The notes under the pieces were generated by a model that was not told the origin of the DNA, did no database searches, and saw nothing but the letters and a program-made list of their open reading frames with translations. DNA of 64,000 nt. Origin: Escherichia coli (GTDB lineage: Bacteria > Pseudomonadota > Gammaproteobacteria > Enterobacterales > Enterobacteriaceae). Positions 17,832 to 21,086 of the stretch are shown here, piece by piece (position 1 is the first letter of the stretch; each line of letters starts with the position of its first letter). The stretch lies in assembly GCF_051903065.1 (NCBI RefSeq), contig NZ_CP178438.1; one strand, 5' to 3'. Position numbers and translations under genes: made by a program.

Positions 17832-19148
17832 TTAAGACTTCGTCGATTTCTCAAAGCGGCGCAGCAACTGATTTCCACGCTCAACGGCGGTATCCAGTGC
17901 CTGCTGTGGTGTCTTCTTACCGGTCCACACGCTCTCCAGCTCTTCATCCACAATCACGCGGATCTGCGGCATGTTGCCCAGACGCAGTCCTTTGGTGAAC
18001 GGCAACGGCGGCTTATTCAGCATCTGACGCGTCGCGGTATCCGCCCCTGGATTTTTCTCATAAAAGCCCTGCTCACGGGTCAGGTCATACGCTGCTTTGG
18101 TGATTGGCAGATAACCGGTTTTCTGATGCCACTCGGCAGCGTTTTCTGGCTTCGCGAGGAAGTCGAGGAACTTCGCCACGCCGGTATACGTTTCTTTATC
18201 TTTGCCCTGCATCACCCACAGGCTGGCCCCGCCGATAATGGCGTTTTGCGGTGCATCTTTCGCATCGGCGTCGTAAGGCATCATGCCTACGCCATAGTTA
18301 AATTTGGCGTACTCACGAATATTAGCGAGAGAACCGGAAGAGGCGGTGGTCATCGCGCAATCACCGTTATAGAACTTCTCGGTGGATTCATCCTTACGCC
18401 CGACGTAGCTGAAATCGCCCTTCTTGTTCATCTCTTCGAGCATGGCGATGTGTTTCACCTGCTCCGGCTTGTTGAACTCCAGCACCGCATCCGTGCCGTC
18501 AAAGCCGTTGTTTTTGCTGGCAAACGGCAGACCGTTCCAGGCGCTAAAGTTTTCCAGTTGGATCCAGCCCTGCCAGCCGCTGGCGTAGCCGCACTTCATT
18601 CCGGAGGCTTTCAGTTTTGCAGAATAGTCCGCCAGATCCTGCCAGGTTTTCGGCGGCTGTTCCGGGTCTAATCCTGCTTTCTTGAAGGCGTCTTTGTTGT
18701 AATAGAGAACGGGGGTCGAGCTGTTGAATGGCTGGGAGAGTAAGTGGCCCGTTTTGCTGTCGGAGTAGTAACCGGAAACCGTCGGCACAAACTGCGACTC
18801 ATCGAATTGAATCCCCGCCTCTTTAAACACGTCATATACCGGTTTAATGGCTTTCGACGCCATCATGGTGGCGGTGCCAACTTCATAAACCTGCAAAATA
18901 GCCGGAGCATTGCCGGTACGAAATGCGGCAATCCCCGCGCTTAAATTCTGTTCGTAGTTGCCTTTATAGGTCGGTACAATTTTGTAATCCGGGTTTTCGG
19001 CGTTAAAACGTTGGGCCAGAGAATCCACCTCTTTACCCAGTTCCCCTTCCATAGAATGCCAGAACGGAATGGTCGTCACTGCCTGTGCATTCCCCATTAA
19101 CGCCAGTCCGAGCGCCAGTGCTGAAGCTGTATAATGTAACGGTTTCAT
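17832..19148 (-). CDS. ugpB: sn-glycerol-3-phosphate periplasmic binding protein
   Basis: 438 aa with signal peptide [23 protein letters not shown]. Confidence 0.92.
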
Positions 19149-19285: not shown

Positions 19286-19507
19286 GCGGTGACGGTACGG
19301 GTGAGGGAAAATGGGAGATGGGGCACGGATATCCCGAGAATGCACTGAAAAGAGGCGATTAACGGCCAGCTAATCGCCAGAACTCCTTACCATGAAGAGC
19401 AAAAATGGCAGCAAATTCTGCGTCCAGTTTTGCTGCCCGATGAGAGCTACATTTTTCAATTTTAACAAAAGATTGCCGCGACACTGGTCTAACGGCAAAG
19501 AAGATTT

Positions 19508-20254
19508 TCATTGCACCACACTCTGCTTCAGCCGCTCATTGGCGGTCTTAATCCATTCCCGGTGGTGTTTTCTATAATGAGGTCTTGAGCGTTTAGCCGT
19601 ATCAACCACGGCAACATACTGCTCGTTGGCTTCACGTAACCGACTCATTTTCGCCAACATTTCCGCATAGTAAATACGCGCCTGCGGGCCGGGGTAATAA
19701 GAAATCAATACTTCAAACTCGCTTTCCGCATCAGCGTATTTTTCTTGTGCGGCTAACGTTCTGGCAAATAACAAATGCCCGTCTGCCGACTGAAAATCAG
19801 GGTTATAACGCATCACATCTTCCAGCGTCTGCTGACAGGCGGCGAACTCCTGAATAGCAAACTGTGCCTGCGCCAGGCTTAGCATCATTGCCGCTTCATG
19901 GGCGAATATCCCGCTTAACGCCTGCTGATAATGGGGAACAGCTTCGTGATAACGCCCCAGACGCGCCAGTTCATTAGCCAACGCATAATGGTTTTGATTC
20001 GTCTCGGCAATCGCCAGTTCTTCGGTTAATTTGCGCAGGTGGCGCTCAGGGTTGAGTTTGTTCTGCAGGCGCATCAGCAAAGTATGCCCGTGACGGTCAG
20101 CGCCCGTTTCAGGCAGCATCACTATGACGAAATACGCCACGCAGCCAATCACCGGAAAACAGAAAATGATAAAAATCCAGTACCGCTCTTGTCCGGTACG
20201 GTAAGCGTGAATACAGCAAAGCAGTTCAAGCATGACAACAACGGCATAATGCAT
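19508..20254 (-). CDS. hypothetical membrane protein, PLDc_N-like N-terminal domain plus helical-repeat (TPR-like) C-terminal region
   Basis: 248 aa; N-terminus LELLCCIHAYRTGQERYWIFIIFCFPVIGCVAYFVIVMLPE fits the small two-helix PLDc_N pattern (R..W....I..P..G...Y); C-terminal part Ala/Leu-rich helical repeats; no database check run. Confidence 0.6.
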   Translation of the reverse strand: MHYAVVVMLELLCCIHAYRTGQERYWIFIIFCFPVIGCVAYFVIVMLPETGADRHGHTLLMRLQNKLNPERHLRKLTEELAIAETNQNHYALANELARLGRYHEAVPHYQQALSGIFAHEAAMMLSLAQAQFAIQEFAACQQTLEDVMRYNPDFQSADGHLLFARTLAAQEKYADAESEFEVLISYYPGPQARIYYAEMLAKMSRLREANEQYVAVVDTAKRSRPHYRKHHREWIKTANERLKQSVVQ

Positions 20255-20372
20255 GGGAGGGAACCTTTCCGTGGCAAATAAGTGGTCTGGTTTTAATCCT
20301 CCCGGTCAGTTGAAACAAGTCTGTATACGGACGAAGATCCCGGCAGAACGTGGCTGCCGGGTATTCGATAAT

Positions 20373-21086
20373 TTACCCGCCTAAATACGCACTTCTCACT
20401 GCTTCGTTCGCCAGCAGCGCATCGCCGGTATCGGAGAGCACAACATGGCCGTTTTCCAGCACGTAGCCGCGATCCGCCAGCTTCAGCGCCTGGTTGGCGT
20501 TCTGCTCGACGAGGAAGATCGTCATCCCCTGCTCGCGCAGCTGCTCGATGGTGTCGAAAATTTGCTGGATGATAATCGGCGCAAGACCGAGCGATGGCTC
20601 ATCAAGCAACAACAAACGCGGGTTGCTCATCAGCGCGCGACCAATCGCCAGCATCTGCTGTTCACCGCCGGACATGGTGCCCGCCCGCTGAACACGACGC
20701 TCATGAAGACGTGGAAACAGCTCATACACCCACTTTATGCGCTCCTGAAACTGATCACGTTCGGCAAAAAAGCCGCCCATCGCCAGGTTCTCTTCCACCG
20801 TCATCCGCGAGAAGACGCGACGCCCTTCCGGGACAATCGCTACCGCTTCGCGCATGATTTTCGCCGTCTGCCAGTCGGTAATGTCTTTATCATCAAACAC
20901 AATTCGCCCGCTGGTGGCGCGCGGATCGCCGCATAACGTGCCGAGCAAGGTGGTTTTCCCCGCCCCGTTCGCGCCAATCAGCGTGACAATCTCGCCCTGA
21001 TTGATATGCAGGCTCACCTCATGCAGCGCCTGGATTTTGCCGTAGTGGGCGCTGACTTTGTCAAAGGACAACATGACTTTTTCCAT
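20373..21086 (-). CDS. livF: branched-chain amino acid ABC transporter ATP-binding protein
   Basis: ORF 20373..21098; 237-aa form from MEKVMLSFDKVSAHYGK...; Walker A GANGAGKTT. Confidence 0.92.
   Translation of the reverse strand: MEKVMLSFDKVSAHYGKIQALHEVSLHINQGEIVTLIGANGAGKTTLLGTLCGDPRATSGRIVFDDKDITDWQTAKIMREAVAIVPEGRRVFSRMTVEENLAMGGFFAERDQFQERIKWVYELFPRLHERRVQRAGTMSGGEQQMLAIGRALMSNPRLLLLDEPSLGLAPIIIQQIFDTIEQLREQGMTIFLVEQNANQALKLADRGYVLENGHVVLSDTGDALLANEAVRSAYLGG

Follow-up and report, generated by a model that had tools for sequence, protein, structure and literature searches.

LapB (YciM) of E. coli is an inner-membrane-anchored cytoplasmic tetratricopeptide repeat (TPR) adaptor which couples LpxC to FtsH. 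Its nine TPRs follow a single transmembrane helix and precede a metal site of rubredoxin type at the C-terminus. CpoB belongs to the Tol-Pal system as a TPR protein of the periplasm and contains a coiled coil besides its signal peptide.

The N-terminal hairpin of ClsA consists of two transmembrane domains (TMDs) with a conserved PxxG motif, and positive charges in the inter-helix loop and after TMD2 give it a 'frustrated' pattern (Sawasato, Dowhan, Bogdanov; PMC11698083). Experimentally, the catalytic C-terminal domain of ClsA is cytoplasmic in normal, PE-containing cells, and the hairpin 'has structural information' for its inversion upon PE depletion or osmotic down-shock (PMC11698083). Addition of two Glu next to TMD2 results in a uniformly periplasmic domain, while the PxxG motif is dispensable for the dual topology of ClsA (PMC11698083).

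Here, we investigate a gene between ugpB and livF within 64,000 nt of Escherichia coli DNA (in the following, the window). We read it as an intact ancestral gene for a small inner-membrane hairpin-TPR protein, i.e., a stand-alone membrane-tethered adaptor that was lost in most E. coli, and place our confidence in this reading a little above even.

The gene between livF and ugpB

The gene and the segment in which it resides are located as follows.

19508..20254, minus strand: whole coding sequence, 248 aa plus stop (ORF call, PGAP CDS, exact-protein records, dN/dS)
19332..20372, no strand assigned: variable segment of 1041 bp (alignment and breakpoints against K-12-type genomes)

The ORF listing of the window provides an intact ATG ORF of 248 aa for this interval. 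The identical interval is a PGAP/RefSeq CDS in a 100%-identical genome, annotated as 'tetratricopeptide repeat protein' (WP_000558844.1), and this exact protein is found on at least 1000 contigs. In EDL933, ugpB is Z4822 and livF is Z4824 (PMC5343319), such that the TPR gene is Z4823 by position. We found nothing relevant on Z4823 in the main text of searchable papers.

In the window, ugpB covers 17832..19148 (minus strand, start at 19148) and livF, also on the minus strand, stops at 20373, which leaves a gap of 1224 bp. In K-12 (TOP10, MG1655), only 398 bp without any annotated feature separate the neighbouring genes ugpB and livF. Both the gap sizes (about 1.2 kb compared to a few hundred bp in K-12) and the location of the ORF between livF and ugp on the strand of livF had been described by the initial annotation and agree with our measurements.

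Compared with four other Escherichia alleles, the window gene shows dN/dS values of 0.08-0.24, i.e., the TPR gene is under purifying selection where it is kept. Together with the same-length homologues in about 840 clusters (50% identity, E<1e-10), these values set the ORF beyond chance. Given the intact ORF and the dN/dS range, we reject a pseudogene in this window. The initial annotation had named a degenerate ORF or a copy in K-12 as evidence against its proposal; the ORF is complete and K-12 lacks the gene. That is, the window carries a genuine, undamaged accessory gene of E. coli that databases already list.

Domain architecture of the protein

The protein divides into three parts.

20111..20254, minus strand: PLDc_N-like two-helix membrane hairpin, codons 1-48 (hydropathy, AlphaFold2, Pfam, hhalign)
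20045..20110, minus strand: linker, codons 49-70 (pLDDT of 53-68 for residues 50-70, charge counts)
19523..20044, minus strand: TPR solenoid, codons 71-244 (Pfam, AlphaFold2, Foldseek, HMM matches)

The AlphaFold2 model, based on an alignment of 25 sequences, is all-helical with a mean pLDDT of 87.8. Its N-terminal helices span residues 2-20 and 25-32/34-50 with a kink at P34, and residues 71-244 form a confident solenoid of regular helix pairs (pLDDT 90-98). Between both parts, most family members have a basic linker, whereas that of the E. coli protein is close to neutral.

For the solenoid, the Pfam models TPR_19 (38.7 bits, cut-off 25) and TPR_2 (29.8 bits, cut-off 27) both score above their cut-offs, and TPR_19 and TPR_14 are matched by 127-128 of 129 relatives. 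Pfam coordinates and the model together define four canonical TPRs (about 86-119, 120-153, 156-189 and 190-223), with one helix ahead of them and capping helices at the C-terminus. The long helical-repeat tail of the initial annotation is thus made up of TPRs according to Pfam, AlphaFold2 and Foldseek. When searching the PDB with Foldseek, the top matches are all TPR proteins (E about 1e-4), and a profile search of PDB sequences returns generic TPR scaffolds only. The combined Foldseek and HMM matches of the solenoid are restricted to consensus TPR, OGT, MamA and YrrB. NCBIfam provides no specific family for the protein.

The N-terminal hairpin and its relation to ClsA

The hairpin is composed of helix 1 (about 2-20), the loop R-T-G-Q-E-R and helix 2 (about 25-47), and ends at P48. 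Helix 2 carries the signature W26-x7-P34-x2-G37-x3-Y41. Pfam places PLDc_N (PF13396) on residues 26-44 with 20.0 bits and an E-value of 6.9e-4, which is below the gathering threshold of 23.3. At E<=0.01, PLDc_N is matched by 80 of the 129 family representatives (best 4.7e-7). An hhalign comparison aligns the family profile to ClsA residues 37-61 with a probability of 79% and an E-value of 1.6e-5, over only 25 columns. The PLDc_N assignment is therefore secure at the family level only, where the profile match indicates homology to the ClsA hairpin. Accordingly, the two-helix N-terminus of PLDc_N type in the initial annotation holds, with a sub-threshold score of the protein itself. The cardiolipin synthase model TIGR04265 covers just residues 22-54 with 11.9 bits (cut-off 290), and its two HKD domains are absent.

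Among the 129 relatives, the best-conserved residues are H16 (126), W26 (128), P34 (119), G37 (128), Y41 (128) and P48 (124), and the hairpin is overall more strongly conserved than the TPR domain. The conservation peaks at H16, W26, G37 and Y41 argue that the hairpin is more than a passive anchor.

We also assessed the charges around both helices. In the family, the N-tail carries no charge, the median net charge is +2 for the loop and likewise for the linker after helix 2, and most members place 3-5 K/R within the 15-20 residues that follow helix 2. In the E. coli protein, the respective linker has a net charge of 0 to +1, and two acidic residues, E49 and D53, lie close to the end of helix 2.

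Family and gene neighbourhoods

An exhaustive HMMER search, counted in 50%-identity clusters, yields 1853 clusters at E<1e-3, about 840 at E<1e-10 and 129 at E<1e-30. Nearly all family members are 240-260 aa long and match end to end; length and motifs are kept from Escherichia to Bradyrhizobium. Relatives from our genome scan are found in the Pseudomonas alcaligenes/mendocina group, Xanthomonadales, Bradyrhizobium, Rhodopseudomonas and on Ralstonia chromids. Searching with a profile of the first 66 residues returns only short fragments of the same family, i.e., no other architecture based on this hairpin, and our literature search found no paper on a family joining a ClsA-type hairpin (PLDc_N) with a tetratricopeptide domain. 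The protein is thus a member of a large, uncharacterised proteobacterial family, for which the fusion of a ClsA-type hairpin with TPRs is the one unusual feature.

To compare gene neighbourhoods, ORFs around 82 loci were clustered and the neighbourhoods of seven relatives were labelled with Pfam. Neither shows shared neighbours beyond the genus level. Since no neighbour is conserved between enteric, Pseudomonas and other loci, the protein would act alone or with unlinked partners. Neither conserved neighbours nor any paper that we found lend support to the remark of the initial annotation that small PLDc_N proteins are often linked to stress or the envelope.

Flanking expression signals

Signals on both sides of the gene are located as follows.

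20255..20333, minus strand: conserved 5' flank, the 79 nt before the ATG (near-identical across Escherichia)
20339..20361, minus strand: GC-rich hairpin CCCGGCAG-N7-CUGCCGGG, 11 nt after the livF stop (MFE fold)
19354..19498, minus strand: three terminator-like hairpins after the CDS, at about 19498-19473, 19437-19408 and 19378-19354 (RNA fold)

The 5' flank is near-identical in E. coli, the cryptic clades, E. whittamii and E. albertii and retained in part in C. freundii. The sequence following livF differs in E. whittamii and E. albertii, yet both keep the flank. A weak candidate promoter, read by eye, consists of a -35 TTGTTT (20318-20313) and a -10 TTAAAA (20296-20291), each with 3/6 consensus positions; a consensus promoter scan did not call these hexamers. 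GGAAAGG is located 9 nt before the ATG. The MFE structure of 20255-20306 pairs CCCUCCC, the last 7 nt before the ATG and similar to an anti-Shine-Dalgarno sequence, with GGGAGG about 45 nt upstream. E. whittamii alters both of these arms without clear compensation, and the fold of the 5' flank is no better than that of shuffled sequences (z = -0.8).

The GC-rich hairpin behind livF is probably a leaky livF terminator with a weak U-tract. It is kept in E. coli and the cryptic clades; E. whittamii and E. albertii have a different sequence at this place. Downstream of the gene, each of the three hairpins is followed by a U-rich run; their fold reaches -60 kcal/mol (z = -3.3 compared to shuffles), and the third hairpin (19378-19354) is also called by a terminator scan. 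Three terminators within the 176 nt between the stop of the gene and the shared ugp region are unusually many for a small gene. They may guard the Pho-regulated ugp promoter from liv read-through. Rfam has no match in the gap at E<=1.

Proposed function and membrane orientation

Our reading builds on the integrity of the gene and the selection acting on it, its domain architecture with the hairpin homology, as well as its distribution and synteny reported below. From these we infer adaptor function, sidedness, partner and promoter. In the proposed mechanism, the hairpin would fix the protein in the inner membrane, where it probably also supplies a specific lipid or protein contact. A flexible linker would join it to the four-repeat TPR solenoid, whose groove may bind a protein partner and thereby recruit or hold it at the membrane, in analogy to LapB/YciM with LpxC and FtsH. 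The gene would probably be transcribed from its own weak promoter and by read-through of the liv operon, and the three terminators would insulate the ugp promoter from this transcription.

By analogy to ClsA in normal cells, the TPR domain is most probably cytoplasmic, and we favour this location by a moderate degree over a periplasmic one. E49 and D53 together with the near-neutral linker are a change of the kind that sends the ClsA domain to the periplasm, which keeps a periplasmic or dual topology live.

The main rival reading takes up the opposite orientation. That is, the hairpin would be inserted N-out/C-out, and a periplasmic TPR domain would serve as an envelope-assembly or envelope-stress factor similar to CpoB/YbgF, YfgM or NlpI-type proteins. 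We regard this as possible but clearly less probable than the adaptor reading. The charge pattern points both ways: nearly all members have an N-tail without charges, and the median charge of +2 before helix 2 resembles the n-region of a signal anchor, but the 3-5 K/R after helix 2 in most members are a retention signal. The enteric linker, with both acidic residues at most 7 residues from the helix end, places them where two added Glu make the ClsA domain uniformly periplasmic, while the unmodified, homologous ClsA hairpin puts its C-terminal domain in the cytoplasm of normal cells (both PMC11698083). Among the NCBIfam models, the best match is the periplasmic TPR protein YbgF (TIGR02795), which covers a short TPR module at residues 87-157 and stays far below the equivalog cut-off (31.6 vs 90.1 bits); this reflects generic TPR similarity. 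Envelope-related neighbours are found in other taxa, namely MscS, LrgAB, L,D-transpeptidases and a LiaF-like TM protein, but this theme is anecdotal and not conserved.

A further, improbable reading is a switch in which the TPR domain flips between cytoplasm and periplasm with lipid composition or osmolarity, such that either side could receive a protein-binding module. It would fit the homology of the hairpin to that of ClsA, PxxG included, and the balanced charge signals on either side of helix 2, as well as the stronger conservation of the hairpin relative to the TPR domain. For ClsA, the hairpin does carry the information for inversion upon PE depletion or osmotic down-shock, but PxxG itself is not needed for its dual topology (PMC11698083). 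The switch is drawn purely by analogy with ClsA, and the post-translational translocation of a folded helical domain of 200 aa would be demanding. We give equally little credence to the more general idea of the ClsA-type hairpin as a topology module that responds to lipids and can be carried over to other proteins, and of the protein as a membrane-state sensor or adaptor. If true, this would be a sensor/adaptor of an undescribed kind; the architecture is shared by about 840 clusters (50% identity). Should the hairpin turn out to serve lipid sensing or orientation in general, the small dispensable E. coli protein would lend itself to studying such a module.

Distribution, REP/BIME alternative and ancestry

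Gene presence was determined by megablast for 5426 complete E. coli genomes. The TPR gene is found in 659 of them (12%), i.e., it is absent from about 88%, and this presence/absence comparison identifies it as accessory. It is always chromosomal, at the livF-ugpB site and single-copy but for one genome, H90, which holds it at two places (87% coverage). Carriers include O157:H7, O55:H7, O145:H28 and SMS-3-5. Regarding sequence identity, 476 copies are in the band of at least 99%, 72 in 95-99% and 111 in 90-95%. For 60 carriers sampled down the ranking of the 659, the CDS is intact and annotated in all 60. Presence of the gene thus sets O157:H7-type and some other lineages apart from K-12-type genomes at a core locus.

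In 4630 of the 5426 genomes (about 85%), K-12 included, a REP/BIME cassette occupies the site in place of the gene. In about 137 genomes, the livF-ugpB junction lacks the TPR cassette and also falls short of 80% of the K-12 REP cassette, which means that more gap variants exist, such as REP copy-number changes and insertions. The borders of the variable segment are sharp. On the ugpB side (19331|19332), homology to K-12 stops 183 bp upstream of the ugpB start, and on the livF side (20372|20373) it picks up at the livF stop codon. The K-12 counterpart of the 1041 bp is an unrelated segment of 215 bp, which contains REP sequences (GCCGGATGCGGCGT...) along with a hairpin terminator of its own for livF; its core has a median of 11 occurrences per genome. 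A short-word blastn of the K-12 gap gives only the shared 183 bp near ugpB and no remnant of the TPR gene. Within the shared ugp upstream region, three adjacent bases (19296-19298) are the sole differences from K-12, reading GTACG in the window and GCGTG in K-12. Their distance to the breakpoint is about 35 bp, and the outermost pho-box-like repeat is located downstream of them.

The gene neighbourhood is kept in other enterics. We scanned seven enteric loci (two cryptic Escherichia clades, E. whittamii, E. albertii, Citrobacter, Pseudocitrobacter and C. freundii) and found the liv genes upstream of the gene in 7/7 and ugpB downstream in 6/7 cases. In C. freundii CP055551, an orthologue with 75% identity directly follows livF, and a metagenomic relative with 68% identity lies between livF and ugpB. 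Since orthologues follow livF in other Escherichia, Citrobacter and Pseudocitrobacter, most E. coli would have lost the gene. The simplest history, judged from synteny rather than from a tree, is that the gene was present in the Escherichia-Citrobacter ancestor and was later replaced by BIMEs in most E. coli. The gene is thus 'extra', as it was termed by the initial annotation, in being absent from K-12 and restricted to 12% of the genomes, but the gain implied by that term is at odds with the ancestral synteny. The locus would thereby provide a clean, well-bounded case of gene loss through REP/BIME replacement.

In the E. albertii type strain NBRC 107761, the orthologue is frameshifted between residues 185 and 186, which looks like an independent decay event. 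This frameshift and the loss in about 85% of E. coli show that the function is dispensable in many settings. Allele divergence is also visible among E. coli carriers. When comparing the window with the allele of a second carrier, dS is 0.19 for the TPR gene and 0.05 for the adjacent livF, i.e., differs about 4-fold, and differences are concentrated in the 5' half of the gene, including a 3-bp indel. The excess over livF suggests that the alleles diverged long ago or that recombination was limited to the gene.

The absence from about 88% of the E. coli genomes and the frameshift in E. albertii, along with weak ribosome-binding site and promoter signals, could also indicate a decaying, functionless ORF heading for loss in E. 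coli. The intact CDS in all sampled carriers, the low dN/dS and the conservation of length and motifs up to Bradyrhizobium make this very unlikely.

The C. freundii CP055551 gap holds, in this order, the TPR gene, two small ORFs (93 and 135 aa, neither with a Pfam match), a PhdYeFM-Fic pair and ugpB. With its PhdYeFM antitoxin and Fic toxin, the livF-ugpB gap acts there as a small cargo hotspot. That the TPR gene itself is horizontally acquired cargo, e.g., a defence or phage-derived gene, would match such a gap, the variable presence between core genes and a GC3 of 0.54 compared to 0.64-0.71 in the flanking genes, but we reject defence or phage cargo and hold acquisition in general to be highly improbable, given the orthologous position in several Escherichia species and Citrobacter, breakpoints without integrase, repeats or att-like duplications, no PADLOC or PHROG family at E<=0.01, no relative found on mobile plasmids, and mobile REP repeats that make up the alternative allele rather than that of the TPR gene.

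Comparison with known systems

Similarities of residues 71-244 (approximately) to MamA, YrrB, TTC0263 and CTPR concern the fold, with target TM-scores of 0.63-0.86 at 15-22% identity and a lower target TM-score for an eight-repeat CTPR match. These proteins have no membrane hairpin. The likeness to solved TPR structures is confined to the repeat scaffold and is thus uninformative on the ligand.

CpoB/YbgF differs from the window protein by the lack of a membrane hairpin. Furthermore, the gene is flanked by the liv and ugp operons rather than placed in a tol-pal context.

With LapB, the nearest analogue of the proposed mode of action, the protein shares an N-terminal membrane anchor followed by TPRs within a small stand-alone protein. 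On the other hand, its anchor is a hairpin, only four TPRs follow, and CxxC is absent; its cysteines are found only at 13, 14, 32, 38 and 140, which excludes the rubredoxin-like Cys4 site of LapB. No search gave a specific sequence relationship to LapB, and no LapB family is among the NCBIfam matches. Without rubredoxin feature and sequence link, the protein is not a LapB/YciM member.

The comparison with ClsA is closest for the hairpin. In both proteins, the sequence opens with two short helices; the N-tail carries no charge, helix 2 is flanked by positive charges on both sides, and the hairpin is followed first by an acidic residue and then by a linker of basic character. The spacing W-x7-P-x2-G-x3-Y is the same, i.e., W40/P48/G51/Y55 in ClsA and W26/P34/G37/Y41 in the window protein. 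Helix 1 of the latter is shorter, with a conserved Gln/Glu10 and the invariant His16. Beyond the hairpin, a TPR solenoid follows instead of the PLD/HKD catalytic domains of ClsA. That is, the family joins a ClsA-type, orientation-controlling hairpin to a protein-binding TPR domain rather than to an enzyme.
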